Shown one piece after another: positions 1 through 34,497 of a DNA stretch of 64,000 bases. The stretch's first letter is position 1; each line of letters begins with the position of its first letter. Position numbers and translations under genes: made by a program. The notes below the pieces were generated by a model. That model was not told the origin of the DNA and did not search any database. It was given only the letters and a program-made list of their open reading frames with translations. This DNA comes from Macrostomum lignano (lineage: Eukaryota), in contig NIVC01002760.1 in NCBI GenBank assembly GCA_002269645.1, positions 1 through 64,000 on the forward strand, written 5' to 3'.

Positions 1-2074
1 TCTTGAAGAAATCTGTTATGTATTGTTGTTGGAATTCACGTTTCTCACGTTGGGCTAGAGTCCTATAGTATTCACTCTCTGTTGCGGCAGTGTAAATTTC
101 TCTAATAAGCATAAATGTTTTTTCCTCAGTTTCTAAAAATTCATAATTCTCTCAAAGAAGTGAGCAAACCAATTACATTCTGTATGAATTCATTAGTGTT
201 TTCAATTACGCTTTTCGATCGATATATTTCACCCTTTGTTTGCTTGAAAATTTCTAGTAGGTGTTTCATCTCAGCAAACTTATATTTATCTTAAACTCCT
301 CACTTTTAAATATGATCGGCTTTATAAATGTGTTCTCGCATGATCAATGATGTCGGTATCTGTTGTATATTTGCAGGTAATTAATATTTATAATTCGTCT
401 TTCTGCATCTCCAATATTTTGTCTAAAGTCAGGCTTGTTATTACATTCGACTATAGGGTTGTGTAAAACGACATTACACTGGCTTGAATATAAATTTCTA
501 GCTTGGATAACCCCACCACCAGTTAGTAATTTTATTGATGCATTGTTCAAGACACCACTTACTTCTTGACTGATAACCAACCTCTTTTTATTAATTTGTG
601 CTAGGGCTGGTTGTGGCCTGTCTATTCTTATTGGTAAATTCAAAACATCAGGACTCAGTGGTGCTGCATAATCAGATCCTAGAGTTCTAAGAAGTAGGTT
701 GTCCTCAACCCCTTGCCATTTCCACCAGCGCCATCAAACATTATAAAGTTTTCAACATTCTTACCCATTAGAGCTGTGGCTATAACGGATTCCCAACTTT
801 TTCTATTTTCTGGATCGGGATGAATTTGGTTATGCAGATTAACAATGAAGCCATAGTCGTAATCACTCACTCCAAGTACATCCGAGTAATTATATCCCAC
901 CGATTTAGTAACGTAATCGTCATATCTATACTCGCGAAACTCACCTGTAAGGAGGTCGTATACTCCATCGTTAAACCCTAGCAATTCCATTTCATGTCGA
1001 ATTCAATTTCATTGTTAGTAAACCTCTCTTTGAACAAAGTAGTTACCTGTTTGAGTTTGTTGGCTCCTTGTATTGAATTTATATTCTTTATTGTACTCTG
1101 TAGTTTCTTTTCAAGTGCTTTTAACTTCTCTTTATCATCAGCCGCCTTCTTAATTGCAATTTCGAGTCTAGTCTTTCGGTGGTTTAACTCACTGCTAACA
1201 AGTTCTGATATTTTAAGAAATATGTCATTTATACTACTTAGTTCTCTCCACTTATCATCATCAAAATAGTAAATACCATCGCTATTGTAAATTATATTAT
1301 TCTTCTTATATTCATAAACAAAGTTGGTTATGTTAACGTCAGTGAAATTATCATCAAGATACTCAATCCTACCATAGTAATCATATTTGCTTTTCCATTC
1401 CTTATATTTACAATAATTTTCTTCACTAGCCCATTTCTTCAACGTACCGATAGTAAGTCTGTCCTGTGCATCAGCAGAGCTGGTATTGGTGCTATTCCAC
1501 ACATTTTTACATGCCTCGGAATCGAACTTATCATAATTTACTTTTGACCAATCAGTGAATACTTTGTACATTTCATCACCACTGTCTATGTCGCGGAGTA
1601 TAAGTGCAACCTTGTACCAAGAATCATAGTCTTGGTTTTTGTGTTGTATTATACTTAACAACTTTGAAACTCCTTCACAACTGGGTGATGGAACGGTGCT
1701 TTTTAGTGCCTGTTTATCTTGTTCTTGGATTTCATTTTTATCCGTGGCTTTATTAATCTATTTATCTCATCAAGAATTACATCTGGCATGTCTATAAGTC
1801 CCTCGCACTTTGTACGTTTGTATTCCTTCATTTCACCATCCACATAATAGAAACCTGGTGGAGCAAATACTAAAGCTGGAATATCAAAACCCACACTTTG
1901 TTGAATCGTTACTTTCAATCCATCTACTTTGTTAAAGTAAAAGTGGTGTCCCTTGTTTGTCTGAACAACCCAATCACAATGAGTCATACACAGTTCATTC
2001 AACTCAGGGCATAGGTCAGCATTATCAATATCGATTACGGTTATATTTGAGTTTCTAGTATCTATCCAAATCAT
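1..2074 (-). CDS. PrimPol + PriCT-2 + D5/SF3 helicase multidomain replication protein, split by single-base frameshifts; the N-terminus probably extends towards ~2340
   Basis: 1703-2074: VIDID...TNKGHHFYF (AEP/PrimPol motifs). 978-1661: YDSWYKVAL...FTDWS...W (PriCT-2). 679-990: LGFNDGVYDLLTGEFR (D5_N) and Walker A GAGGNGKG. 344-643: KKRLVISQE...IKLLTGG...ARNLY...ECNNKP (SF3). One extra base in homopolymer runs at ~1740, ~990 and ~705 joins the frames. Confidence 0.9.
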
Positions 2075-2360
2075 GTTGTCTACCTCTGGTCGAAATGGTG
2101 GGAGGTTGAATTCCTATCTGCTTTGTTTGGCATTCCTGACGGTATTTTTTTCTTTGTTTTACTATTCCATGTTACACTGCAACTTCCGAATTTAAAATTA
2201 AGTTCTCATAGAGATTAATTAGTTTATCGTACGATTTTGTTTGTTTTAAATTTGTCAATCTTGGTGGTGGGCATCATGTTTTTGAAGCGGATCCTGTACG
2301 ATCACAGGAGAGAAACTTGAATCGTTTTGATTTTTTCTTTCCATTTTATTTAAAATAAAT

Positions 2361-2700
2361 TTAACAATATAATTCATCAGTTTCAATGTACTTCTCAAGG
2401 GTTATGGGGAGTTTGAAAATGTTCAACTTAAGCATGACGAAAAATTCATCATTCCTTATGTGCTGTCTTGAAATCAATGCCCATTTATCAACATGTGCAA
2501 GATATACTCTGAATGAATACAAATAAGGGGGGCATTTACAATCGTGTGTTTTAATATTTCTGCTTTATATTCATCGTAAGCTTTATCAATTTCTTCAATT
2601 AGTCGAGCCTTTCGAGTGGTGTTTTTATTTGAGAGAAATTTATAATAGAATCATAATACTTTTGTGGCAGTGCATTTCGTACATTTGGGTTAGCTTCCAT
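2361..2700 (-). CDS. Hypothetical ~113-aa viral protein with two apparent frameshifts
   Basis: AAAAATG start at 2700. The reading frame is restored by adding one base at two short runs, and it ends TAA at 2361. No recognisable domain. Confidence 0.4.
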
Positions 2701-3176
2701 TTTTCTATGAAAAATTTAACATTTTTGCTTTCTTTTGGGCAAATTTCTATAGATAATCCAACTTTAGCATTTTCTGTGTATCATTATACTTTGTCTTCTT
2801 AATTTTTCGCTACTTTTGCGCCTACTTCATTGGCAGCTTTTTTATTATTGACTGTCTTTGCGATTCCGGCTGCACCTGCCTGTCTTATGAGAGGTAGATT
2901 GTCTTTTAGTAAGTTGGAATGGTGCTTCTAGTATCAAAATACCCTCTCCATTGTACTCTAGGGCTCACCTATTGTATACTCTCTTAGCTTGCGTGGATCT
3001 GTAACGGGGCACATTTTTGTCTATTTTTAGAAACAGAAAAATAAACACAGGAACAGAAAGACTTTCAGACACCAAAGGCCAAACTCCATTGGGCTAAATG
3101 TGGCCTGCTCAAAGCGGTGATATATTTGTTTAAATTATTACCTTAATAAATGTTTGATATCAAATCATGTTGATAA

Positions 3177-3752
3177 TTATGGCGCATTAGATGGTTCTAT
3201 ATCAGCGCGGCATGTTGGGCACCTAACCATGTTGCCCTCTTGAATTCCAGTGCGATAACATATTTCACAAACTACAGCTCGACAACATGCCATGGTAACG
3301 TTTGGTGGCCGTGGTTCGTGTTGGCAGATTGGACAAAGCCCTTGATTATTCCCCGGCTGAGCTGGATGGTTCTGTACTTGAGTCGGGTTATCCTCTGGTT
3401 GAATATCAGCTAGTTGGTGCTCCATATCTTGGCGATAAGCAACCAAGCGCCTCTCTGCTTCTTGAACGCGACGTTTTTGAAGATAGTAGTTCTAGGAAAG
3501 GGTTTGGTGCGCTCGTATATGATTTTTGTAAACTAAAACCTTATAATGTAAAAACACTTTTTAACTAACCTTTAGCTGATTAAAGAAGCGCTCTTCATTA
3601 GCCAAATTTTGTGGGTTATACTCCAAAAAGATGTTGATGGCAATATCTCTAAACATTGAGTTCCTATGGTGTTGTCGCAAATTTCGCTCTCGAATTCTAA
3701 GAGTTGCTCTAGCGGCAGTAAGCCTCTCGTGCAAATTCGAGAAAGAAGGCAT
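3177..3752 (-). CDS. Coiled-coil + RING-finger protein (165 aa), two exons 3570-3752 and 3177-3491, with a 78-nt spliceosomal intron at 3492-3569
   Basis: Donor AAG|GTTAGT and acceptor CCCTTTCCTAG|AAC. The phase-0 intron contains both in-frame stops. The spliced product ends in CPIC...CC...CEIC...CPTC (RING variant). Confidence 0.8.
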
Positions 3753-3970
3753 TGTAGGAATGATAATTTGTAAGAAGGTAAAGTTAGTAGAGAAAAATTA
3801 CTAGACCTTGCCGCTCGTGGCCATTCATTTATATATTTTTATGACAAAACGTCAGACCCCGCATTCCATTCAGACCAAAACACGAGACCAATTTTTATCT
3901 TTTTATTTTTCGAAATTTTCTTCTCGCGTTTTGGTCTCGCGTTTTGGTCTGAATGGAATGCATGACTCAG

Positions 3971-4448
3971 TGTAGCAAGAGTATAAGATAAAAAATATAA
4001 AACCCCGAATTCCTGTGTTAGTCATCGAGTGAAGTTTGCCTACTTGCTTTGCTATCTTGGTCGGACAATAGCCGACCATATTGTTGCGGTGCGAGCTTGC
4101 TTCTGTGTAGCAAGAGTAGATGAAAAATATAAAACCCCGAATTCCTGTGTTAGTCATCGAGTGAAGTTTGCCTACTTGCTTTGCTATCTTGGTCGGACAA
4201 TAGCCGACCATATTGTTGCGGTGCGAGCTTGCTTCTGTGTAGCAAGAGTATAAGATAAAAAATATACAACCCCGAATTCCTGCGTTACTCATTGAGTAAA
4301 GTTTGCCTACTTGCTTTGCTACGGTGGTTGGACAATAGCCGACCATATTATTGCTCTGCGAGATTGCTTCTGTGTGTAGCAAAAGTAGATGAAAAATATA
4401 CAACCCCGAATTCCTGCGTTAGTCACTGAGTGAAGTTTGCCTACTTGC
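3971..4448. repeat. ~135-bp tandem repeat (about 3.6 copies) in the viral intergenic region
   Basis: Unit starts TGTAGCAA at 3971, 4106, 4238 and 4375. Units contain GAATTC and the hairpin GGTCGG-acaatag-CCGACC. Confidence 0.9.
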
Positions 4449-4544
4449 CAGCTTCCTAAGATAGTAATTTTTGTTTATTGACCCCGTTGGGAGTTTTTGT
4501 GCTTATGTTGTGTGTTTTAATGGTGACTATGGTGTTATGTCTAA

Positions 4545-5890
4545 TTATGTGACAATTATGTCTAAAATCGGATAAAGTTGAAAGCCTGAAACAATAAGAA
4601 CAGTTGATCCTTCAGTGGCTGAATTAATATGCACTCTATAAACAGAGAATTTTTCGATGGAAGCTACTTCGAAATACTTCATCACTCCAGGAACTAAACC
4701 AGCGTTTTCGGTAGAAAAAATATTCTTAAAGTCTCTCTTGTTATTGCTTCCTTTCAGAATAAAACTTTTTGGTTGATTTTTTATAATTTCACTACCTACT
4801 GCTTTGGTTCCTTTCAATCCGAATTTCCAAATTTGAATAGATCGGAAGTTGTACTTCAATGTAAGAATTGGGTTCATTCCTCGATGCCCATTCTGAATTA
4901 GATACTATATAACCCCAATTATCTGACGTTTCAAATGCTCCTGATGACGCTACATTGAAACCCCTTTCTCTATAGTTTTGACGTGTTGCTAGTGGGGAAT
5001 ATATCCTGTATAAGATTTGAAACCTAGTCCCCGCCTTAGTCGCAGCTCCACTGATTCAAGTGCATTGTCTACGTATAGCTTTGGTACAGCTTGAAGTCTA
5101 TCTATAGGCCACACTAAATCATTAACCACTGTTTGTCTCTCAAGTAATTCAACTTTTGTAAGCTTTACGGAACCAGAAAAATTAAGAGAATAATGGAAAT
5201 AATATGAGGGATTGGGTATTTTTTTCCTAAGATGTGCATTGCCCCTTCGTAGTTCAATGGGTGCACTTTGTTCAACAGGTGTCCAGTTTGTTCCATTTAG
5301 GCTCACACTAACAGACCAACCAGGCCACACCTCTCCTTCCAACTTTATCTCTACAACTTTCCTAGCTCTTTTCAGAAATTGAACTCGTATCCACTTGTCT
5401 GAGTCATCTACACTGCTCCATTCTGAAGCTGGGTTTGAATCTGCAACATGATATGCTGCTGAAGAGTTATGAGAAGCGGTCACTTTCATGTCAGGATCGG
5501 AAGCGTTTGAAGTCAGTAATGAAAGAATATTGACTAATTTCGAACTCTCTGTACCCCCACAGTACCTTGCCTTTCTGCTAACAAAGTGTCAATTTCGGTT
5601 TTAGAATACATCTTAGTGTCAATTTCGGTTTTTGTGTAGACATTGTTTACGCGCCCATGAGCATCGTCAATTAATTGTAGCATGGTGATATTCATTGCGT
5701 CACTATCTTCCTTTGAATAAGAGTCTGAAACATTTCTCTTTGCTAACAATAAATTATCTATTTCCTCTCTCTTATATCCTTCATTTTCATTGATGTATCG
5801 ATCATCAGCTAACGCTATTGTTATTCCAGGCGCTATATCATTTGAATTTGACGAGTAACCAAATTGATTGGCAGTATTCTTGTAACTCAT
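4545..5890 (-). CDS. Fibre/spike-like virion protein: YTKxEID repeats plus two discoidin/F5-8C-like domains (frameshifted)
   Basis: 5534-5890 has YSKEDSD/YTKTEIDTK/YSKTEIDTL repeats. One added G in GTGGGGGTAC joins it to 4989-5489 (EWSS...WIRVQF...SLNGTNWT). The later frames give GYIP(P)L...EWASRNEPNSYIEVQLP...IQIWKFGLKG, a second jelly-roll-like module. Confidence 0.6.
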
Positions 5891-6318
5891 TTTAATTGCT
5901 GCAAAATTTCATTATAGCTATCTCCTTTATCGATTCGGTGTAAAAAGTACAGCGACATTTGACCACAATATTTCTTATCAAAAGTTTGAATTTGTTCTTC
6001 CATGTCTCCACATATTCTATTCTTTGTGTGATTAAACTTTTCCATAATTTCCAGTGTGGGTGGTAGTGCATAGGAATCAAAAAAATAAACCTTATCAGGA
6101 GCTGAAAATATAGCTGAATGATGTATACCCCGTTCTTTCGAAGTGTGAATATTTGTCATAAAGTAACCATACTGTGGTAAATCAACAATTTCATCTCTCA
6201 TGGCATAGCGAAATGGTTTTAACTTGAGATATTTTGCCCAATTTATCAGATCAATATTAGTCGTAGTGTCAGTCCCAAACTTTTGTTTAAATGCATTCCA
6301 TGTCTCAGCTTCGCTCAT
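5887..6318 (-). CDS. Adenain-like cysteine (maturation) protease
   Basis: Catalytic motifs in order: GIHH (His), FFDSY (Asp), QIQ (oxyanion Gln), YCGQ (Cys). The likely start is AAAAATG at 6318. Confidence 0.92.
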   Translation of the reverse strand: MSEAETWNAFKQKFGTDTTTNIDLINWAKYLKLKPFRYAMRDEIVDLPQYGYFMTNIHTSKERGIHHSAIFSAPDKVYFFDSYALPPTLEIMEKFNHTKNRICGDMEEQIQTFDKKYCGQMSLYFLHRIDKGDSYNEILQQLK

Positions 6319-6327
6319 TTTTAACAC

Positions 6328-7117
6328 TCATATTTGTCGTACGTGTAGATTTATAAATATTTCCTCGCCATCAAAGTCGTATAGAACACCAGACTCATCT
6401 TCGATGACAAAGTCGAATGTGCTCAACATGTTTGTAGTTAGTGGTAGGTACACAGGATTTGCAGGTCTTGAATAATTTTACTTCCCATTGGGACAGAGAA
6501 CGATGGAATTGAAAGAAGTATTTGCTTATCAATTAAATGATCTCCATTGGCTGGATCAGTGATAAAACCCCCTTTGATATTGAGACAACGAACCATGATC
6601 GCACTTCTAGCTCCGTCTATCCGAGCTGGATTTGGAGCTCTCTCAAATGGTTTCAAATACACTTCCGAATTGAATCCCAACAGTCTTCTAAAGTTATTGG
6701 AATGTGCATCCCTGAAATCAACTTGATAATCTGTGGCTAACCGTAACTCAACTCTACGCGTGTCTAGGCTTGCACTGAAAACAATAGCCCCCTCTTTCCA
6801 ATCATTTGCAGCTGTTAGCAATCTTAGAATCTCGCTTGACAGACTTTTAACTTCCCAAGATCCCGCTTGAATCTTTATTTTTTCCATGTTCTACCACTAT
6901 CCCTCGAGTATCGCAACTCATTATTGCCTCCTTCAATATTGTTAATAGCATCAAAGACTGCAAACTTTTTTATACCAGCTTCGTATTCTCGATCTTCATA
7001 CAAATTTATAGGAGTGCCTAGAGTTTGTCGAAATGGGTTTTTAATTGAAAAGAAGTCAAATGTGCGTTGAAACTTTTTACTCAAGAGGATGTTGACTTTT
7101 TCTATTTCTTTTTCCAT
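6328..7117 (-). CDS. Minor capsid protein (penton), two single-base frameshifts
   Basis: Three frames (6875-7117, 6438-6887, ~6328-6465) join into a Polinton penton-like protein: NNELRYS...IQAGSWEV...LLGF...PANPVYLPL...FVIEDESGVLYDFDGEEIFINLHVRQI*. Confidence 0.85.
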
Positions 7118-7119
7118 TT

Positions 7120-7850
7120 TTAAGCAAGTAATTCTACTAGCTCTTTATCAACATTGTTATGTCCCTCTGCTTTTGCGGCTAGTAATGTCAACACTCTTTC
7201 ACTGAGTCCAGATCCCGGTTTTACTCGATATCCTGGTGGATTATCTTTCAATATCCTTACTGCTTGCTTATAATTCCCACTTGATTTGGCCGCTGGATTT
7301 TTACAATGTTCAATGAGGTTAACATAATCCTGCAATGTTTGCATCTTGAATTGCTTCAGCTCTTCACCATTTTCAGTTACTTTAGGCATTTTGAACAACT
7401 CTTCAAGATCTTCAGAAAATGGCATTCGAACTTCATTGACAATGATGTCTCGACCTTGTTCATGGAATTCAACATCTATTACAGATGATCCAAATATATA
7501 TCCAGCATCAGTTTTTTGAATCCGTATACTAGGCGCTGGTCTTTGAGTTATTGGAATCTTTCCAATTTCTTCAATTATTTTGTCAAATACTTCTAGGGTT
7601 CAAATCGGCCTTTTGGTGTACTTGATTGCGGAACTGGAACTTTTTGATTCTGAAGTTTATCAACAAGGTTGGCATTGACATCAATAAATTCATCGAGCTT
7701 TTCTGTGACAGGTTTTTGAGCTAATGGAGCCACTCTTGCATATAAACTCTCTTCTCCAATTTTCAAATAGCGTTGAGCATCATTTCTGGATTTGTACATT
7801 TCTCGCTGCTTTGCTAAATTAATGAGTTCTCTTATATATTCATTAGTCAT
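7120..7850 (-). CDS. Conserved Maverick-type virion protein (~243 aa) with one frameshift at 7595
   Basis: ORF 7593-7850 joins 7120-7425 through an open frame if GAACCCTAG is read as GAACCCCTAG. The C-terminal GSGL...LTLLAAKAEGHNN resembles the conserved Maverick LLxAxxxAGN motif. Confidence 0.6.
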
Positions 7851-7852
7851 TT

Positions 7853-8622
7853 TTACAATGGGATTTTAGTTAGAACATCCTTATACAAATCTTGCTCATC
7901 CTCATCAGCTCTTGTATTTATATAGATATAGCCATACTTCTTTTTCCAAGCCTCTCTACATTTAGCCTTGAATATAGCGGGTTCATAATTCGTTTCTATA
8001 TTTCTAGCAATGTGATTTAAGTTTGTATCTTTTTGTTTAAAGATTATGTAACATGTCGTATTCTCCCTGACAGTATTGCGATCTAGTTTGGTAAAATTTT
8101 GAGCTAGATAAAAACCACAACAGTTTCCATGCCTGCCTCTCTGAAACAGACTTTCCTGAAATGTTTGATTAGCCTCTCCCAAAACATCGTCCAATATCAC
8201 ACATGTCTTTAGTCCATTATGAAAAATTTCTTCATTTGGAGTATGGGAAAGAGTGACAGAATTTTCTCTATTACTTCTGAATTTTCTGATGTGCTTTGCA
8301 CTCGACCAGGTCGGCTGCCTCGACAAATATGCTTAATATCTTCAGGAGATGCATCCTCACTCACCTGGTAGACATGATAGAGTGAGTTGATAAGAGAAGG
8401 TGGGAGACCATTTTCAAAGCCATGCTTTAGAAACTGATACTCTGGATCCATTTGAGATGCTCTGGGAACATATAAAACTAACTCATTAAAGTCAACTAGT
8501 TTTTCAGGACTTGTAAGAATATGGAATAGTAAATATGTTTTACCCGTATTTGTAGCGCCGATAATACAACATAAAAGAGGATTAGGGAAAATAGGATCAT
8601 GCTGAAATTTTACTTTGGGCAT
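7853..8622 (-). CDS. A32/FtsK-like DNA-packaging ATPase, one frameshift at ~8260-8330
   Basis: Walker A IIGATNTGKT, Walker B VILDD, FQRGRHGN...YLAQNF and A32-type C-terminal WKKKYGYIYIN. Confidence 0.93.
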
Positions 8623-8643
8623 TTAAAAAAAGAAAAAATGACC

Positions 8644-10008
8644 TTATTCGACGCGGGTCATTTGATATTCACTGGTAACTTTTATTACATTCTTTGTTTG
8701 TTCAAGAATTAGTGCAAAAGCAGTCAGCTCAACATTTGTTGACTTCTTGATAAATAATTGAATATTCACTCCACTCTTGACCAGAAACTCATCTTGAGCT
8801 GTTAGATCAAAGCAAAAGATTGGATAGATGGTTAGAAAGTCTTGTTTATTGAATGGAGGAGTTACACCGAAACGGCTGCAGATGTCTTCGTACATTTCAT
8901 ACGCTCTGTGAATGTCTTGAGCTACTGGATCAATTTCAACATAATCATTCGGATACATCACCTGATTTAATCTGACTTGAAGCTGGGTTATTTTCACTGA
9001 ATTTGCTCCAGTTTTGTAAGACACATACTTGTGATCATTAACTATATATGATGGGTTGTTTACGTCATATTTGAAAGCTACAAAGATTGCAAGTGGCATA
9101 TTGGAGATGTTGGCTATGTTCCATGTATATGGACTTCCTTGAATGAGTTGTGGTGGAACCGTTACCCTCTCTGGAAATGATACTGTAATGTCCTTGTTGA
9201 GTGATTTTAGAAAAGCTGCTTCAGCACTGGGTGACAAAGTAATAGCAGGGATCCAAATCTCAAAGCTATTAATAGTTAACTTAGCTTCCGTCCCGGCAGC
9301 TCCAAAGAAAATTTCAGCATCGTTAGTCTTTCTTGTCCATGTGAATTTATATTTAATTCCTTTGCTAATCTTCTGCCAATCAAGGAACCCAATGAGAGGT
9401 GTTAATGATAGTTTGATTGTTCCACCTCTGTTTGGAGCATTAGTGACATTGTTATAATTTTCAAGCCTCCTAATGTATCCAGTATTCGAATCCTTCTTAT
9501 TGAGTCTATTTTTCATAGCGATTGCTGCAGTTCTCACAGCTTCAGCATCTGCGTTGTTTGCTAGAGGTATATCAGAAACAGTCCCAGCATCTCCAGTGTC
9601 TGGAATCCATCCGTATGCTTCTCCAACTTCATTCATTAATTTTGAGTACATTACGGACTTTAAGATTGTGTCATACTCTCCAGGATCATTATAGACTTTC
9701 TTTGTTCCTCCAATGTCAACTATGAGTTGAGAGAAAAGTCTCATAGGCCAATTATGTTCTAGAGTAATGTTCGTATTCAAGTCGGTGTTATCTCGTTGTG
9801 TTATTGAGTATTTTATACAACCGAATGCCTCTGACATGAGAATGTATGACTCTGTTGAATTGACTTCATGAACTATTTGACCTCCTGCAACATTGAGATT
9901 ATTAGTGCTACCTGGAGTTGGAGAAATCTTAATATAGTCTTCTTTCTTTTTGAAAAAGCTAAAAGTTTTGTCCTCATATATGCTCAGTATATCCTTTTTG
10001 TTCTCCAT
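8644..10008 (-). CDS. Double-jelly-roll major capsid protein (454 aa, intact)
   Basis: Intact ORF next to the ATPase and penton. Motifs LFSQLIVDIGG, LTINSFEIWIP, QVRLNQVMYP, YPIFCFDLTAQDE resemble Polinton MCPs. Confidence 0.88.
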   Translation of the reverse strand: MENKKDILSIYEDKTFSFFKKKEDYIKISPTPGSTNNLNVAGGQIVHEVNSTESYILMSEAFGCIKYSITQRDNTDLNTNITLEHNWPMRLFSQLIVDIGGTKKVYNDPGEYDTILKSVMYSKLMNEVGEAYGWIPDTGDAGTVSDIPLANNADAEAVRTAAIAMKNRLNKKDSNTGYIRRLENYNNVTNAPNRGGTIKLSLTPLIGFLDWQKISKGIKYKFTWTRKTNDAEIFFGAAGTEAKLTINSFEIWIPAITLSPSAEAAFLKSLNKDITVSFPERVTVPPQLIQGSPYTWNIANISNMPLAIFVAFKYDVNNPSYIVNDHKYVSYKTGANSVKITQLQVRLNQVMYPNDYVEIDPVAQDIHRAYEMYEDICSRFGVTPPFNKQDFLTIYPIFCFDLTAQDEFLVKSGVNIQLFIKKSTNVELTAFALILEQTKNVIKVTSEYQMTRVE

Positions 10009-10028
10009 TTTTATAAGAGAAATTTCAA

Positions 10029-10481
10029 CTAAGCTTCATGAGGTCTAAGAATTATCCCATTACCCTGTTTCTCCTTTTCAACTTTAAAAGTCTTTAGCAG
10101 CCACTTGACTGCTTCGCTGGGTACTTGTTCGACTCTTTTAGCCGCATCAACTAATACTCCACTCCCTTGAGCCTTTTTCAACTCTTCTAGTTTTTGCCGT
10201 TCAATGCTTTCTATTGTCTTATTATGTTTAGCATTGTTGGCTGTATTAACACTTTTTGCAATCATTGTACCAACTCCTGAGGCTGCTCCGATACCACCCA
10301 AAATTGCTGGTAGTAAGCCTAATAGAGGAATTATTCCACCTTCATGTTCTTTCTGTTTCTCTTGCAATTCTCGAATCTTCTCTTTAGAAAGATATTGCTT
10401 TTGCTTATTTACAGTAACATATCTTGGTTTTCCCTCTCGAACATATCGATTGAGTCTTGCTTCAGTGTTTTTCTCGCTCAT
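10029..10481 (-). CDS. Adenovirus pX-like core protein
   Basis: HEGG-IIPLLGLLPAILGGIGAASG resembles the adenovirus pX C-terminus (MRGG-ILPLLIPLIAAAIGA), following an adenain-type GG site. Confidence 0.7.
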   Translation of the reverse strand: MSEKNTEARLNRYVREGKPRYVTVNKQKQYLSKEKIRELQEKQKEHEGGIIPLLGLLPAILGGIGAASGVGTMIAKSVNTANNAKHNKTIESIERQKLEELKKAQGSGVLVDAAKRVEQVPSEAVKWLLKTFKVEKEKQGNGIILRPHEA

Positions 10482-10489
10482 TTTTAAGG

Positions 10490-10912
10490 TCAGAATTTCT
10501 TCAAACCATTGCCTTGTCTCAAAGACACTTGAGACTGTTCTGCTGTTCCTAGAGCCTTTTTAACAATATCTTGAATAGCCTTATTTGATTGAGAAGCTAT
10601 CTGTTGCTCTTCTTCCATTCTTTTCTTTGCTTCTTTATCTCTACGTTTCTTTTTAATATATTCCAGTTCCTCACCTGCTTTAGACATGTCACTGTATGAT
10701 TTCTTCGCATCGAATATGTTCTTCGCTGTGGTAGCTGTTTTACCTATTGCATCAGCTCCACTCACAATTTTACTTCCATGATTTGATAAAAAGTTTGTGA
10801 CACCACTGATCATATCACCAATTCCTTCACCCTCTTTATCAGCTAGTAGTTGTGAATCAGACGTTTCAATCTGACCTTTCGCCCGTTTGCAGTTTGTTCG
10901 ATAGGCGCTCAT
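10490..10912 (-). CDS. Small virion protein with a GEG-preceded amphipathic helix (pVI/cupiennin-like, putative)
   Basis: AAAAATG at 10912 gives 140 aa. KEGEG-IGDMISGVTNFLSNHGSKIV is amphipathic after a GxG site. The C-terminus is QGNGLKKF. Confidence 0.5.
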   Translation of the reverse strand: MSAYRTNCKRAKGQIETSDSQLLADKEGEGIGDMISGVTNFLSNHGSKIVSGADAIGKTATTAKNIFDAKKSYSDMSKAGEELEYIKKKRRDKEAKKRMEEEQQIASQSNKAIQDIVKKALGTAEQSQVSLRQGNGLKKF

Positions 10913-13104
10913 TTTTAGTTGAAAAATTTGCTGGTAGAAGCTGGGATTTGTAAAATGATCCAATAATTTCTTCTCCATTCTCATCCTCAATAATGTAGGT
11001 TATGGGATTGGAGTAAACTATTTTCTTTATCCTAAACACTTCTGAAATTTTCCAATATCCTCTTCGACCCTTTTCAAAGTGCTCCTTATATCTATAGATA
11101 TGAACTTTGTCACCTACTTTGAAGTTTGGTTTCCCATTTGAATACTCGAAAGTTGGCTTTGGTACTCGCTCAGGATGTTTAGATGCTTCTGAAGGAGTTA
11201 TCAGAATCTCAGAATGGATTGTGTTGTTGTATTTTTCAACAATAGCTGGCAATGTGTGGAGCCACTTCTGATTACCCTGTAGATCAAATTCAAACCAGAG
11301 TTTATTTGTGAGAGTACGATTGAACCTCTCAATCATTGCATTCTTGGACTCGCCATAAATTGAAAACATCTTGTTTATATATTCACCCTTTTCATCCTTC
11401 TTTCTAATGTTGTCTTTTGAAAACGAATATAGCTTGTACATATGCTGATTATAAAACTCCTTGCCTTCATCTACACAAAGTCTCTCTGATCGTCTTCCTG
11501 ATTCCTTAAATACTTTTTGGAAAGCTTCTGCAACTTCCGCTCCCGTCTTTGTTTTCAAAGGAACTGCCCAGGCGTAACGTGTAAAACCATCTATGATAGT
11601 GAGAGCATATTTGTAACCTCTTTCAGGAGGAAGGATAATAATATCTGCATGCCAAATTGTGTCTTTTGCATAGTGAATCATTTTTCTAAATACTCTTGGC
11701 TTTCGATATTCTTTATGCAATTTTACTGCATCTTCATAGCTAAGACCCTTACCATAAATTGTTAGACAGTCTATACAATTGTTGGGGTTGTGAGTATGAA
11801 TGCCTAATCCAAACCGAACTTTAGCCTTGATAATACGCTTTACTAGATTTCGAATGAGTCTCTCTTTCACAGACAAGTCACTGGTTGGAATAGCATCTAA
11901 ATCAGCTATCATTTTTTCATCAGCTATATGCTTCTTTGCTAGAGCTTCCTCTGGATTTGAAGAAGTGTTTTCAGCATCTCTATAGTTTTTGTCATGATAG
12001 TAAGCAGTCCAATCGATTGGGTTAATTGGTAGACTGTCATACCGAGGCCGGTCTGTAATTGGATTGAGTCTCTTGTCTAAATTTGTACCCGGCAGTTGTT
12101 CCTCAATCTTTCGAAAGAGGCTGGACTTTATCTTAAGGCTTCATCAGGATTGACCAGATCCTTCAGCCCCACCCCCATTAAGTCTCTGAACCTTCTCCAT
12201 ATCCTTGTCAACTTCGTTCGGACTTAGGAGCTTGGCTGCGGATTTCCACCATGTCCTCAAGCTTGTTACCATCGAACCATAGGTTCGCGGACGAAGTCCG
12301 ATTGGGAACAGGAATTACCTGTGTTCCTTCAGAAGATTTCTCAACTGAAGTGGTACTTGAGGCTGTTATTGACGTACTAGAATCGGACGGAGTTCCCGCA
12401 ATTTGAAGGTGTCGCCAATCACTAAGCACTTGTTTAATGTTGGTTATAATGTTTTTGTATTGATCACCATAAAGAAATTTCAATGCAAATTCTCCTGTTA
12501 TAAGGGTGATTCCATTGTCTAGTAAAATATTCTTAGGTTCCTTTGTAGTTCTATTGATGCATACATAATACAACTGATAGGTGGGATAAGAATTTTTATA
12601 GTCTAATAGTTTCTGATAATTCCTTTCACGACTTGATGAATTGTCCGTGTTATCAGAAGATTTAAGCTCTAATGCAATCTTTCGCTCAACGTGAACCAGG
12701 TCTATCTTTTTTACCTTCTCGAATCCAAAATAATTTTCTGCTAATATTTCATATAGTCTGCCTAGTCTCATTTGAATAACTTTAATCTTGTGTGAAATTA
12801 TTAACTCTTCTTGGAAAAGATCATGAAGAATTTGATCATGCCCAACCTTATCATCAATTGGTTTCAGAAGAATTTCTCGAATTGTTTGCTCCATTTTTAC
12901 TATAGAAACTTTAACAAGTGCTTATTTGATGACTAGCAAGGACATTGACTTCCTCACTCAGGCCACTACGTAACCTGCAAAAGAATACCCTGGAATATGA
13001 AGTTCTCCTGGGTATTTTCCAGTGGCGAAGATGGGTGGTAGTTTTGTTATAGCTGACTGAATATCTAAAGCATTTCCTAGAAATAATGGTTTACTGAAGG
13101 CCAT
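10866..13104 (-). CDS. Parvovirus-type PLA2 + DDE (rve) integrase fusion, 452 aa after splicing; exons 12973-13104 and 10866-12092
   Basis: Exon 1 is MAFSKPLF...GELHIPGYSFAG (44 codons). Exon 2 is PGTNLDKRLNP...IDWTAYYHDKNY...KHIADEKM...KAKVRFGLG, then IWHADIIIL, IIDGFTRYAWAVPLKTK, LCVDEGKEF, MIERFNRTL. Exon 2 is in frame and stop-free. Confidence 0.92.
12093..12972 (-). ncRNA. Group I self-splicing intron, subgroup IC1 (880 nt)
   Basis: The 5' exon ends in U and pairs CAGGU/GCCUG (P1 U.G), and the intron ends in omega-G. P AAUUGCGGG (12395-12403), Q AAUCCGCAGC (12235-12244), R GUUCAGAGACUU (12180-12191), S AAGAUAAAGUCC (12123-12134). P3 CACCUUC/GGGGGUG, P4 UGCGGG/UCCGCA, P5abc with GAAA L5b, P6a/b, P8, P9.0 AG/CU and P9 with a GAAA loop all form. 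Confidence 0.96.
12208..12894 (-). CDS. Intron-encoded PD-(D/E)xK endonuclease, Eco47II-family restriction-enzyme-like (putative homing endonuclease)
   Basis: It has its own AAAAATG and the motif IDLV...ALELKSSDNTDNSSS. The domain lies in the loop of P2.1 (12-bp stem 12913-12924 / 12423-12434). The C-terminal ~70 codons read through the ribozyme core. Confidence 0.8.
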   Translation of the reverse strand: MEQTIREILLKPIDDKVGHDQILHDLFQEELIISHKIKVIQMRLGRLYEILAENYFGFEKVKKIDLVHVERKIALELKSSDNTDNSSSRERNYQKLLDYKNSYPTYQLYYVCINRTTKEPKNILLDNGITLITGEFALKFLYGDQYKNIITNIKQVLSDWRHLQIAGTPSDSSTSITASSTTSVEKSSEGTQVIPVPNRTSSANLWFDGNKLEDMVEIRSQAPKSERS

Positions 13105-13529
13105 TTTATATATATAAAATTTACTATCGTTGAATTGGATGACACTTTCATATTGTATATACCTGAAATTGCATTAAATTGACCCGAGGATCCAACCTTT
13201 CTCATGGTTTTAGAGCTGGAATCGTGAAAATTGCACTTTTTAAAAAAAATAGAAAATCACAAAAAATCGCTGTTTTCAGACCATTTTCACCTGTTTTTAG
13301 TCATTTTTCAGTTATTTTTAGTGATTTTCAAAATGAGTGAGGGCATGAGGGCGAGGGCACCCCCCCTTTTTAAAAGTATAAAAAATCCGGAAATTCTGTC
13401 TTCTGAGAAATATACCACAGGCCAATGCCCCCCACATGCCCTCACCCTCAACACCCTCAGTCACAGATATATGTATATTTATATATTTTTATATTTATCA
13501 CACCCCACTTGAACCCATGACCTCCTGGT

Positions 13530-13628
13530 AGTAGTAGTATGTTATAAGGGGTTGAGTCATCCAGCGAGCTGGCGCGCAATGCGCCCGAGCAATAAGTGTG
13601 GCGCAACCCCTTATAACATACTACTACT
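13530..13628. repeat. Terminal fold-back: perfect 25-bp inverted repeat around a 49-nt GC-rich spacer
   Basis: AGTAGTAGTATGTTATAAGGGGTTG (13530-13554) is the exact reverse complement of 13604-13628. Confidence 0.95.
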
Positions 13629-29865: not shown

Positions 29866-29954
29866 GGGACAAGAAGGCACCCTCCGAGCGAACACCATGG
29901 GGTCCCCGGACGCCCCCGGTCCGCGCAACAGGACCGAGGCGACTAATGGCCTTC
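29865..29954 (+). ncRNA. HDV-like self-cleaving ribozyme at the LINE 5' end
   Basis: Nested double pseudoknot in the correct order: P1 GGGGAC/GUCCCC, P2 GAAGGC/GCCUUC, P3 CCC/GGG, P1.1 CC/GG (L3 starts UCC), P4 CGCC..CGGUCC/GGACCG.GGCG, J4/2 CUAAU. G1 coincides with the element boundary. P1 is 6 bp and L3 is atypically long (16 nt). Confidence 0.75.
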
Positions 29955-32900
29955 ACAATCAGCGATGCTCCATATGGAGCGAGAGAGCCAATACTGCGTG
30001 CATGGAGACCGAACCTCAGCAACAACAACAACAAGGGCAACAGATCTCGACCGACGCCCCCCATGCTGAGAGCCTACCTACTGAACAAGTCCTGCGACTG
30101 CGAGGCGGTTGCGACCATCCTGACCGCCGACCCAAGCACGGCCGCCGGAGGAATACCGCGGAGTCGGGCCCAGAGCTCATCCTACAGTTCAACTGTAACG
30201 GCGTCAAGAGCCGTCATACTGAGCTGGCTAAATGGCTCCACGTCAATCGTCCGGCTGCGGTCCTACTGCAGGAAACGAAGCTTGCCAGAGACACAGATTA
30301 CATCCCTCCTACCGGATACTACGTCGCCGCGCGCTGCGACGGTCTTCCTAAAGAGGCCGCCGGCACCCGGGCCACCGAGAACAAGGAAGGGGGGGCACCT
30401 CTCCAGCCCACCCAACCCAGTGGCCCCGAAGCTAACCCTAACGAAGGGGCCAGCGCGGACAACTGCCCCACGCCATGGGCAAACTGCGGCCGCAAGATTA
30501 AGCGCCCACGTTGCCGCATCCGTTGGCCGGCTGACAAGAATGATAAGGCGGAGTGGTGCCGCGGCTGCCGCTCAGGCAGAACCGCCTGCACCCGCAGAGA
30601 CGAGCCGTGGCCACAACCACCGCAACCGCAGCCACAGGCCCAGACCCAGAGTGCGCAACACAATCGTGAGCCGACCGACAACCAACAGGAGCAGGCACGG
30701 AGGACCGCCGCCTCGAAGCCGCCAATAACTCGGCCCAAGAACAGGACGAACAAAGCGACCCACACCAGAGGAGGCACCCTGATCCTAGTGCGCGCCGACA
30801 TTGCGTCCGACACTACGCCATCGCCGCCGGACAACGAACGCCAACTGCTAGACTGCGCCACCGCCACCATCCACCTCAAAGGCCAGGAGCCGATCACGCT
30901 GGTTTCCCTCTACGCACCACCGACCAGCAACCAACGGGGGGAAACCTGGCAACCCCCGCTTCATCTGGTCCCGAACGCCACTGGCCCCACCGTCGTCGCC
31001 GGCGACTTCAACGCCCACGGCAGTTGGGACCGGCACCAAGACGAAGATGAGCGCGGCAAAATAGTGGAAGCCTGGGCGACCTCCCGCAACCTGAGACTTG
31101 CAAACGGCGACTACCATACGCGAACTAACCCAGCAACAGGAGGCAAATCTACTCCGGACCTTACCTGGACCAGCAACAACCTCCTGCAAGGCATCGCGGA
31201 GGGCTGGACGACCCTCGACGATCTGGGGTCCGACCATCTGCCCATCTCCTTCCCGGTCCAGAGACACCCCAGAGCGCCACGGAAGGGCAAGAACCTGCCA
31301 CGGGCCACGTGGTGCTTCCGCAAAGCGGACTGGGGGAGCTTTAAGGACGAACTCACTAAGATCGACGGCCAAAGGGCTGACTACCCAACTCACGGCGTCC
31401 AACTCGCACATCTTCACGCCATCATCTGTAACGACATTCTAACGGCCGCTGCCCATAACATACCCAAAGGGGCCAGAACTGCTGCGAAACCATTCTGGAC
31501 TGACGCCTGCGCCCAAGCCACCCGGGAGTGCAAAGAAGCCCGGCACGTCGCCGAGCTGTCCCCGAGCGACGACAACCTGGCTAGGTTCAAAGCGGCCCGT
31601 AACAACTCCAGAAAGGTGATCCGCCAGGAGAAACGCCGCGCCTGGAGCGAGAAGGCAGCTGAGCTCACCATCAACAGCGACCTTTTCCGCACTCTGCGCC
31701 AGATGCGTGGCGATGGCCCCAAACCAAATAGCGGCGCCTCCCTCCAGAGAAAGAAGACGGGGCAGCAAGAACCATCTCGGCCGGCCCGCACCAACCTGGA
31801 GAAGGCCAACCTGTTCTGTCAGCAATACGCCGCTGTCTCTAGAGTTAAAGGAGGCCCCCAAGACGCCCACACCAATCAAGCCGCGAGAGCAGCCCTCAAC
31901 TCCAGCTGCACGTGCAATGGCTCACGCACCGACATGTGCTCCGCCTTCAGCCTGACCGAATACCGCAGCGCTGTGCGCTCGCTCAAATCCGGGAAGGCAC
32001 CAGGCCCGGACGGAGTTACCAACGACATGCTTAAAAGACTCCCACCGACCACGGACCTGAGGCTCCTGGACCTCATCAACCGGTCTTGGAAGGAAGGAGA
32101 CTGCCCGATGCAATGGAAGAAATCGGTCATCATACCTATCCCCAAGAAAGGGAAAGACCCTAGTAACCCGGAGTCCTACCGCCCAGTGGCACTCACCAGC
32201 AGCATCGCCAAACTGGCCGAACGGATGGTGCTCCAACGCCTGCGCTTTGCCCTCGAGAATTCTGGCCGCCTCAGCAGTACCCAGGCCGGCTTCCGCCGCG
32301 GCCGCTCTACTGAGGAACTCATCGCGAGCACCTGCCAGGACATCTTTGACGGTCTGGAGGCGGTCCCACACCTGCGGTCAGTGCTGTGCCTTCTCGACTT
32401 TAGTCGTGCTTACGACCGGGTCTGGAGGGCTGGGCTGATCGCCAAGCTGAAAAAGCTCGGCATCCCTAACGACGTGCTCCGCTGGATCCGGAGCTTCCTT
32501 GCCGACCGACGTGCCCGCGTACGAGTCGGCAACTGCCTGAGCAATGAAAGAATCTTCAAGGAAGGCCTCCCCCAGGGCAGCGTGCTGGCTCCCCTGCTCT
32601 GGGTCGTCTACATCAACGACCTGGACACGGAGATTAAAGAGGCCCATACGGACTGCAAACTGAAGCTCTACGCAGACGACAGCGCCCTCCTGGCCACCGA
32701 CCGGAGTCTCGACGCCTGCGCTGCGAAGCTCCAACCTGCCCTGGACGCTGTGCACAAATGGTGTCAGACGTGGAAAGTGGAGCTGAGCGCTGCGAAATGC
32801 GTCTACGGAACTTTCACCCTGGACCCCAAGGAAACCAACGGAAAGAAGAAGGTCAGCCTCACCATCGGTGGCCAACCGCTGGCCCATGACCCAGCGCCAC

Positions 32901-34497
32901 GCTACCTGGGAGTGCGCCTCGACGACCAGCTCGCATTCAACAAACAGGGGGCCGACGTCCGCGCTCGTATGTGCGCTCGGCGCCGTCCGCTTGCGGCGCT
33001 AGCCAACCGCAGCACCGGAGCCGACCACCATACGCTGAGAGCCGCCTACGTCAGCACTGTCAGGGCTGTCGCCGACTACGCCGCGGGCACCTGGCTCTGC
33101 GGGGCAGCCCCCTCAACAAGGCACTCCATCGAGCGTCAACAGGCTGCCTGTGCCAGGATCATCACAGGCTGCATCCTACCTTCGGACACGCGAAGCGTTC
33201 TCCGTCTTGCCGAGCTCCCACCGGTCAGCCACGTCGCCTCCGAAAGAGCCGCCCGCCTCCGGGAAAGGATCCTGAGATTGGGCCCAGGCGCAGCAGCACA
33301 CGAACCTGCTACCAGGAGCACGCGCCCGAGGCTGAAGAACCGCACCTACGAGGCTGGGCAGAGGAGACCAACGACAACGGACGCCCAAATTGACACGCCC
33401 CACATCGACCTCAGAGACACTAGGCGCCCTTTCCGCAACTGCTGGCGCCGAGCGGCACTAGAGATGCCAGCCAGCGTCGATCTCGACCAGTACATCAGAG
33501 ACGACATATGTAGTCCCGGTATCGCTCCCTGGGAGGCACACACGGACAGAATCCGGTTCTGTCTGGAGGCAGCCTCGAGGTGCAGCAAATCGGACCCGTC
33601 CGCCGACCGGAACGCAGCCGCCCGCGACACCCTGGAGGACCTACCTGAAGCAGACATCAACATTTGGACGGACGGCTCCGTTGCCGACGGCACAGGGCCA
33701 GGAGGCAGCGCCGCCATCATCGGTACTAACCTGGTGACCTTCGTCCGGAAGAGCCCAGCTGGCCGCTTCTGCAGCTCATTCGACGCTGAGATGCGCGCTA
33801 TCAAAGACGCCCTCACCTTTGTCGCGGAGAAGATCGCCCCTCGCGCAGCCCGCATCCGGCTGTGCAGCGACTCGCTATCGTCGCTCACGGCCCTGCAAGC
33901 GGGCCCCCTAGATCAGCGCACCGAGAGTGGCCTCTCCTGCTGGCGTTTCCTCATCAGCCTGGGCACCTGCGACCTCAATGATATTGACCTCGCCTGGGTC
34001 CCTGCCCACTGCGGCATACCCGCTAACGAAGCCGCGGACAGAGCTGCGAACGCCGCAGCCCGCTTGCCGCAAACCACGGCTGCCATTTCGCTGGGCGCTG
34101 CCAAGGCTGCCATCCGCCGTGACCGCCGTGCGCTGGACGACAGCGCTATGCCCCCGGCCTGGCCAACCTTCCACGCTAGAAGCCGGACCGAGCACACGGC
34201 GGTCTGCCAACTCCGAGCCGGTGCCTCAATGCTCGCCGCCGAGGTCCGACACCGTTTCGGCCTGACGGACTCCCCGCTCTGCCAGGACTGCGGGGCACCG
34301 GACTCGAGCCTGCACGCGATCTACAGCTGCCCGAGGGGGGACGCGCACCGCACTCGCCTGGTCGGCACTGAAGTGGAGCGCCTCCTTACCGAACCGGGCT
34401 TGGCCCTCTCGCTCCTCCGGAACATGGGGCGTTGGCCCCCGTCTATTTCGGCGCCGCCGCGCCGCTGACGAGCGCATGAGAAGAAAGAAAAAAGAAA
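29865..34497 (+). mobile_element. Full-length non-LTR retrotransposon (I-group/Ingi-like) with a single ORF: APE, RT, RNase H and C-terminal CCHC
   Basis: ILQFNCNG, LLQETKL, VAGDFNAH, SDHLPI (APE); KAPGPDG, YRPVALTS, QAGFR, DFSRAYD, PQGSVLAP, LYADD (RT); WTDGS, CSDSLS, WVPAHCGIPANEAAD (RNase H); CQDC...H...C. A-rich 3' tail, flanked by (GCA)n on both sides. Confidence 0.95.

Follow-up and report, generated by a model that had tools for sequence, protein, structure and literature searches.

The first 64,000 nucleotides of contig NIVC01002760.1 of Macrostomum lignano (assembly GCA_002269645.1; this whole stretch is called the window) begin with a Polinton (Maverick) copy. In this copy a gene that fuses a phospholipase A2 (PLA2) in frame to an rve integrase is split by a group I intron, and the intron itself encodes an Eco47II-like nuclease (Table 1). 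Why should such an element keep a ribozyme and a nuclease together at this point of this gene? The answer that we hold to be probable, reading the sequences, is that intron and nuclease form a selfish pair and work as a restriction system without a methylase, in which the intron would be both the immunity and the cargo of homing. We also lean, if only slightly, towards a wider claim. A short-site enzyme without methylase, the erasure of its sites from the whole genome of the element and a ribozyme antidote for the one site forced by Gly-Pro would make a new kind of restriction system, in an animal DNA virus, and the same trick would make a homing endonuclease of a 5-bp cutter, with more than 170 group I introns placed in an animal nuclear genome.

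No GGNCC occurs at positions 1-13500 of the window, where 15.8 are expected under an order-1 model (P 1.3e-7) and 14.6 under an order-2 model, and it is the lowest of the 256 words of the form xxNxx there. Codon shuffles contained 14.9 on average, and zero was reached in 0 of 2000. Because Gly-Pro is always written GGN CCN, every Gly-Pro pair forces a GGNCC; the frames of the element hold 0 Gly-Pro and 11 Pro-Gly pairs (8.1 expected of each), the exception being the Gly-Pro of the PLA2 loop, which is split by the intron. The exon junction GGT/CC is a GGNCC, and the intron divides it there. Protein searches brought up, besides the group of the window copy (family A), a further group (family B) at 58–69% identity, the two families being about 60% alike in protein. 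Four near-complete copies of 17–18 kb, one from family A and three from family B, contain no GGNCC (20.1, 20.0, 18.5 and 20.2 expected), and the count is also zero in all 12 family B spans with an Eco47II-like nuclease and in 14 of 14 further family B spans. As controls, an older related subfamily without the nuclease in the same genome contains 16 GGNCC (7.6 expected), the unrelated Polinton L154 contains 11 (12.6 expected) and the host flanks contain 110 (146 expected), while GGCC by itself shows no depletion in the element (14; 16.6 expected). Intronless sisters have a GGNCC at the junction, and most of them have no other in the matched part. This depletion indicates a 5-bp site rather than a long site of the homing type.

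The intron ORF matches RE_Eco47II (E 7e-7, above the cut-off), as do 15 of 16 aligned members, and residues E49, D65, E76 and K78 are conserved in the alignment. In the structure model the predicted local distance difference test score exceeds 90 for 137 residues, and the tail that runs across the ribozyme core is modelled as disordered. The best fold match is EcoO109I (Z 9.7, root-mean-square deviation 3.6, 163 aligned; next row Z 6.5), with an identity of 13–14%, and Foldseek gave AvaII and EcoO109I among its matches. EcoO109I recognizes RGGNCCY and AvaII recognizes GGWCC. Judging from the family and the modelled fold, it is quite likely that the nuclease cuts the 5-bp site GGNCC, to which Eco47II homologues have been assigned, there "without certainty" (PMC10305163; here and below, statements on cited papers refer to the accessible parts of these papers). 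The ORF begins 79 nt into the intron, behind the 44-codon frame of exon 1, and has its own AT-rich start context (...TATAGTAAAA-ATG), which resembles that of the capsid gene; probably the nuclease is made from this start and not by withholding splicing. Against five copies, the ratio of nonsynonymous to synonymous substitution (dN/dS) is 0.19, 0.27, 0.28, 0.62 and 1.27, and 13 of the 25 full-domain family A matches (at least 84% identity) are more than 96% identical and have no stop.

The nuclease belongs to the PD-(D/E)XK restriction family, as in a type II restriction-modification system, and the neighbouring methyltransferase of such a system was not found. Its neighbours are exon 1 and exon 2 or a 223-aa gene, with no adjoining cognate methylase, and no methyltransferase was seen among 59 frames of at least 95 aa, 58 of them from two near-complete copies, a set that shorter or very divergent genes would escape. 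None of the phage records matches the nuclease. The same nuclease with a translated ribozyme tail is present in other public assemblies, namely in the P0005 cluster (30 members, contigs of 7–65 kb) and in P0001/P0017 (a 4,853-nt contig), and other hosts probably carry such introns, to judge from these records.

By its structure, the intron is almost certainly a true group I intron. Rfam RF00028 finds a full-length core at 12485-12102 with 88.9 bits (gathering cut-off 50; E 2e-21), the P1 helix has its U.G pair and the intron its terminal G, and compensatory pairing is found. The last five bases of exon 1 (12977-12973) pair with the internal guide. Six introns were compared helix by helix, read by motif anchors and not by a full alignment; P7 is completely paired in all six, and between intron types compensatory changes occur in P7, P3 and P1, the second type having one in its P1 guide. 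The minimum-energy folds by themselves are not significant (z -1.8 and -1.2), as expected because the core is pseudoknotted. Among relatives, RF00028 scores 80.6–84.7 bits in 4 of 12 loci and 61–63 bits in 4 of 15. In family A, the intron of L025 is down to 492 nt, most of the nuclease and a part of the core being gone.

Element copies, alleles and junctions were counted in the genome assembly G000. A 1.5-kb query found 49 matches, 25 of them nearly full-length at 84–100% identity, and four copies skip the intron precisely at both splice points. The 5' junction is GCAGGT/TA in all 34 readable intron-bearing copies and the 3' junction is G/CC in 29 of 31 readable ones. Since natural intronless alleles join exon 1 directly to exon 2, both splice sites are fixed exactly. 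By pattern, 148 intron 5' junctions of the first type and 24 of the second were found, at least 172 in all. L074, a metagenome contig, shares the intron, its codon boundary, the nuclease and the fusion with the window copy, at about 47–52% protein identity, and we count this distant agreement of position and nuclease in favour of the restriction system. Viral contigs scanned for the P1 pattern yielded 25 matches, and neither an intron core nor an element protein accompanied any of them. For RNA, four contig sets guessed as RNA were looked up, no run being recorded as RNA. A contig of run X5 (depth 3.3, RNA status guessed) joins an intron-type exon-1 end to exon 2, and the joints in sets X3 and X10 are the intronless genomic allele and so are uninformative on splicing.

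These observations can be joined into one mechanism. The group I ribozyme sits at a fixed site of the PLA2-integrase gene. Every GGNCC has been purged from the element DNA, and the one that cannot be lost lies in the Gly-Pro codons of the PLA2 calcium loop. The intron breaks exactly this GGNCC and leaves a DNA without the site, and splicing would restore the Gly-Pro in the RNA. When relatives share one cell, intronless sisters would be cut once, at the insertion site, and repair would copy the intron into them (homing). Unrelated DNA that is not purged would be shredded, whether it belongs to rival elements, to a helper virus or, late in infection, to the host.

What do the intronless copies say about such movement? 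The 23 intronless alleles that a junction pattern found in G000 run from exon 1 straight into exon 2, all with GGC CC and none with GGT. The immunity of GGC alleles to a GGWCC cutter was considered as well and dropped, as GGWCC and GGSCC are both absent from the element. None of the 21 contigs with these alleles is among the 113 nuclease matches (compared by eye). On an exon-2 tree of 40 copies, with 10 partial or rearranged copies excluded, intron presence changes four times, and at least two of these changes are forced by strong branches. Close to the insertion, three of five intronless copies depart from the window at 35 of 618 sites, against 29–57 of about 6,000 further off (p 7e-14 to 4e-20); the count of 35 shared by the three probably reflects one shared event. 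Two intron-bearing copies have an 82%-identical intron beside a 99%-identical exon 2. Homing with co-conversion would leave such a mosaic, and so would ordinary recombination between copies.

Family B contains the other half of the picture that collaborative homing would predict. In 11 of its 12 loci with an Eco47II-like nuclease, that nuclease has a gene of its own immediately upstream of exon 1, and the intron at the same site is 300–334 nt long and without ORF; in the twelfth, everything from exon 1 onward is lost. A free nuclease beside an ORF-less intron at the same target would be the collaborative-homing arrangement, seen in these 11 of 12 loci. Fourteen more family B copies, chosen by intron pattern, have an endonuclease VII/HNH-like gene in the nuclease slot (PHROG E 7e-7, one scanned), as has the sole intronless family B copy found, whose single GGNCC is at the junction. 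The slot upstream of exon 1 is thus filled, cassette-like, by one of two unrelated nucleases (L223:4306-4875; L178:4959-5462). At the 3' end, 11 family B introns end in A (L175, L177-L180, L223, L224, L227, L230, L234, L235) and 4 in G at the homologous place, with P7 fully re-paired in all, and they form a natural test set for the rules of 3' splice-site choice. A second type of group I intron occupies the same site in 24 copies; it scores 33.6 bits, below the cut-off, and has a rewired P4-P6 region and a compensatory P1, and at its 3' junction Gly-Pro-Gly-Thr is not in frame (six copies).

The same facts could belong to an ordinary mobile group I intron with a classical long-site homing endonuclease, the lack of GGNCC coming from an ancestor or from an outside enzyme (of a helper virus, a rival element or an earlier host), which we regard as rather unlikely. 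The mosaic near the site and the patchy intron distribution would suit it, copies without the Eco47II-like nuclease avoid GGNCC too, and 23 of 23 intronless alleles have GGC and not GGT, as resistant alleles of a long-site enzyme would; moreover, collaborative homing has been described, as have homing endonucleases of the PD-(D/E)XK class that introns encode (PMC3984707). However, it needs a coincidence, since the one missing word of 256 is the site of the nuclease's own family, and GGNCC is missing in two families about 60% alike, yet kept by the related subfamily of the same genome that has no nuclease.

A number of observations weigh against the restriction system that we prefer. The avoidance runs through the whole lineage, since GGNCC is also missing from family A copies that have no intron and from those of family B with an endonuclease VII/HNH-like gene in the slot, and an outside cutter would explain this too. 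There are exceptions, with four sites in L161 (intronless) and one each in L023, L024, L033 and L034, and a patch of five within the nuclease-bearing family B copy L194, possibly an insertion. Distant giant-virus-type homologues (89 loci, overlapping records unmerged) do not bear out the site: GGWCC counts 361 against 371 expected and is not avoided, and GGSCC counts 67 against 259, with GGCC itself low there. Nineteen close intronless sisters persist despite GGCCC at the junction, and the host DNA is rich in GGNCC, which requires that integrated copies keep their enzyme silent, confined or blocked. The family match of the nuclease is distant in both E value and identity to EcoO109I, and two of the five dN/dS values are the high ones (0.62 and 1.27). 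Two of the five intronless copies lack the mosaic and the other three probably count as one event, while the RNA support for splicing is the one shallow X5 contig, whose allele was not found in G000 with or without the intron.

An earlier note on this DNA had proposed that self-splicing is a regulated switch, unspliced RNA giving the nuclease and spliced RNA the entry and integration protein. Its description of the sequence is accurate: the fusion is in frame and split by the intron, with exons, motifs and domains confirmed, the unspliced RNA stops four codons into the intron (TAC GTA GTG GCC TGA) with the nuclease ORF inside, and the internal ATG at 11912 exists. The PLA2 half of the window copy needs splicing, the nuclease ORF is found only in intron RNA and the boundary GxG is present in 22 of 24 homologues, all of which a switch would suit; the early stop is uninformative, being expected of any intron. 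The switch itself we judge highly improbable, since intronless sisters carry the fusion ungated (one open frame throughout in 9 of the 19 close ones examined), family B has its nuclease outside the intron, upstream of exon 1, and the nuclease has its own AT-rich start context, the internal ATG also standing behind AAAAA. Quite improbable, too, is a relic, in which the nuclease would be dead or silent in integrated copies, the intron a neutral passenger and the pattern a mark of past selection only. Many copies are indeed broken, the 492-nt intron of L025 lacks most of the nuclease, the last base of 11 family B introns is A and not G, and splicing has its one shallow RNA contig; on the other side are the intact catalytic residues, the 13 of 25 family A matches above 96% identity without a stop, dN/dS of about 0.2–0.3 in three of five comparisons, and near-identical copies with different flanks.

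The gene that holds the site is not special to this element. The final Gly of exon 1 (GGT) starts the Gly-Pro-Gly calcium-binding loop. Exon 2 matches rve (E 6e-10) and, below the cut-off because the start of the domain sits in exon 1, Phospholip_A2_4 (E 9e-4). The earlier note had suggested looking for the same fusion elsewhere, and it proved to be a widespread family, a further point against the switch: 24 of the 150 best representatives, picked by matched range, span both domains. Both Phospholip_A2_4 and rve are matched in all six fused proteins scanned from other sources and in the intronless family B copy, and P0018, a natural intronless fusion from elsewhere, has both domains above the Pfam cut-off. 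A scan of viral contigs with the fusion alignment gave two loci, neither being the fusion. In P0029, P0035 and P0088, Gly-Val-Gly or Gly-Ile-Gly replaces Gly-Pro-Gly, which, as known from these protein sequences, would drop the forced GGNCC at the protein level.

As for the two GxG motifs that the note took as protease sites, the one at the boundary after the PLA2 domain holds up, being kept in 22 of 24 fused homologues. The second does not, as two separate GxG occur in only 3 of 24 and the second is absent from P0018 and L074. The conservation of the boundary motif fits processing by a protease, and cleavage there is plausible; the motif may also simply mark the end of the domain, because the free-standing PLA2 of L154 stops at the same GxG. 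The fusion protein may well be packaged and then receive a single cut at this boundary.

Table 1. Features of the Polinton copy in the window and examples of the second intron type (positions in the window unless a locus is named)
Feature	Position	Strand	Details
Polinton (Maverick) copy	1..13628	-	truncated on the left by the contig end; terminus on the right ...ACTACTACT at 13628
Exon 1, PLA2-integrase gene	13104-12973	-	44 codons, end IPGYSFAG; last Gly is GGT
Group I intron, 880 nt	12972-12093	-	inserted within GGT/CC; terminal G at 12093; Rfam RF00028
Internal guide sequence GCCUG	12959..12963	-	P1 fold with U.G pair at 5' splice site
Eco47II-like PD-(D/E)XK nuclease	12894..12208	-	228 aa; folded domain residues 1-166 (12894-12397); Pfam RE_Eco47II
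Ribozyme core	12093..12411	-	P3 5' strand 12411-12405; P4-P6; P7 5' strand 12186-12180; J8/7; P7 3' strand 12128-12123; P9
Exon 2	12092-10866	-	408 aa; start PGTNLDK, bases CCG GGT; YHDKNY, ADEKM, then rve integrase
Exon 2 landmarks	His-Asp 11996-11991; RFGLG 11816-11802; IYGKG (second GxG) 11759-11745; rve core match 11669-11439; internal ATG 11912	-	
Double jelly-roll major capsid protein	8644..10008	-	Pfam DJR-like_dom E 2e-13
Probable adenain-type maturation protease	5887..6318	-	look-alikes by protein language model only
Second intron type, examples	L181:5309-5634; L182, L185, L231-L233		

The element itself has the marks of a Polinton. AGTAGT terminal repeats and a 6-bp target duplication, the characters given in PMC8097293, were found: the duplications are TCAATT and GCCATT in the two copies checked, and the flank beyond the terminus ACTACTACT at 13628 differs from copy to copy. 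This terminus is a 49-nt imperfect hairpin (within 13530-13628) bounded by AGTAGTAGT and ACTACTACT. The window copy has a low GC content (0.37) and contains the double jelly-roll (DJR) capsid, the rve integrase, pieces of a primase-helicase, a discoidin gene and a RING gene. The set of rve integrase, DJR capsid, packaging ATPase and cysteine protease is present when copies of families A and B are pooled. The packaging ATPase has a Pox_A32 match in family B and the corresponding family A piece is 32–42% alike; the frames of both packaging ATPase and primase-helicase are broken in the window copy. For the protease ORF (5887-6318) a protein language model gave look-alikes in Peptidase_C5 clusters (score 0.95–0.97), with zero matches in Pfam, PHROG or PDB sequences. 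No protein-primed polymerase was matched in the window copy, itself cut by the contig end; DNA_pol_B_2 is present in the family A sister L163 (E 1e-8) and in L194 of family B (E 7e-17). The host is an animal, as G000 has 86 Wnt-family matches and contig C67 carries both a Wnt match and an intron-bearing copy, and near-identical copies of the element occur with different flanks.

Some further features of the region were seen. Besides the polymerase of sister copies, family A has a primase-helicase (Prim-Pol, PriCT-2, D5) at window 679-2074 (broken) and at L171:3085-5021, its orientation in L171 being opposite to that in the window copy. At 3861-4448 a 31-nt inverted repeat is followed by 3–4 tandem copies of 132–135 nt, where sisters have the polymerase region. 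Between integrase and capsid lie two small genes (10029-10481 and 10490-10984) in which QGxG/EGxG motifs recur several times; these are candidates for protease sites of core proteins. The 6-bp left flank of L171 agrees with the right flank of L029, which lies on a different contig, and this would point to a misjoin or to copies that have recombined. In the host DNA at 29897-34468 there is an intact-looking non-LTR (long terminal repeat) retrotransposon frame of 1,523 aa, with endonuclease, reverse transcriptase and RNase H recognized by eye.

Each piece of the proposed system has a precedent. RF00028 introns of 300–380 nt lie in a gene of integrated protist Polinton-like viruses (PMC12220804), which are alike in having a group I intron within a gene of an integrated Polinton-like element. 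As described there, these are confined to Paulinella, Desmodesmus and Rhodomonas and interrupt a short gene that precedes the one for the capsid, a nuclease not being annotated, whereas here the host genome is that of an animal, the gene is the PLA2-integrase and a restriction-like nuclease lies inside or beside the intron. Chloroviruses are eukaryotic DNA viruses in which group I introns likewise interrupt protein genes and restriction enzymes with short sites degrade host DNA; their endonucleases adjoin their methyltransferases, and intron and restriction features are unlinked there (PMC7019647). Here, in contrast, no methyltransferase was found and protection seems to consist of site loss plus the intron. 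Eco47II, EcoO109I and AvaII share family and fold with the nuclease, which differs in its 166-aa domain, its 13–14% identity, the lack of any partner methyltransferase found and its place in or beside a ribozyme. Known cases of collaborative homing use long-site enzymes, while here a 5-bp site seems to have become unique through its loss throughout the element. With the composite mobile introns of phages (PMC3984707) the present case shares both stages of the collaborative-homing model, which occur in one genome, as the free nuclease of family B and the intron-borne one of family A.

The PLA2 also has a known counterpart. The PLA2X of adintoviruses, a PLA2 resembling that of parvovirus VP1, occurs in animal Polintons that also have adenain, an rve integrase, a capsid and an ATPase, and is a separate gene with a pX-like tail (PMC8502044); here, the PLA2 has no separate gene with a pX-like C-terminal domain and runs on into the rve integrase, split by the intron. 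The fusion could already be shown in a preprint or in the adintovirus supplements. Group I introns are listed for organelles, nuclear rDNA of fungi, plants and algae, bacteria, phages and protist viruses, and as scarce in mitochondria of early-branching animals (PMC3984707), and vertebrate Mavericks are reported as intronless (PMC8097293). In the literature outside subscription papers we found no report of group I introns in Polintons of animals, nor of an intron that protects against a restriction enzyme, and the accessible parts of preprints on small eukaryotic DNA viruses, of the papers on a nematode Polinton and an entomopox Polinton-like virus, of Yutin 2013 and of PMC11071308 mention no such intron. 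Protist Polinton-like virus introns, chlorovirus restriction enzymes and collaborative homing are thus each on record, and the literature searched contained no case in which they come together, without a methylase, in the genome of an animal.

If the proposed restriction system is real, a group I ribozyme would act on mRNA in animal cells, and a virus would have a non-selfish reason to keep an intron. Both stages of a proposed origin of mobile introns would stand within one genome, and integrated Polintons of animals would be seen to compete by means of weapons that cut DNA.

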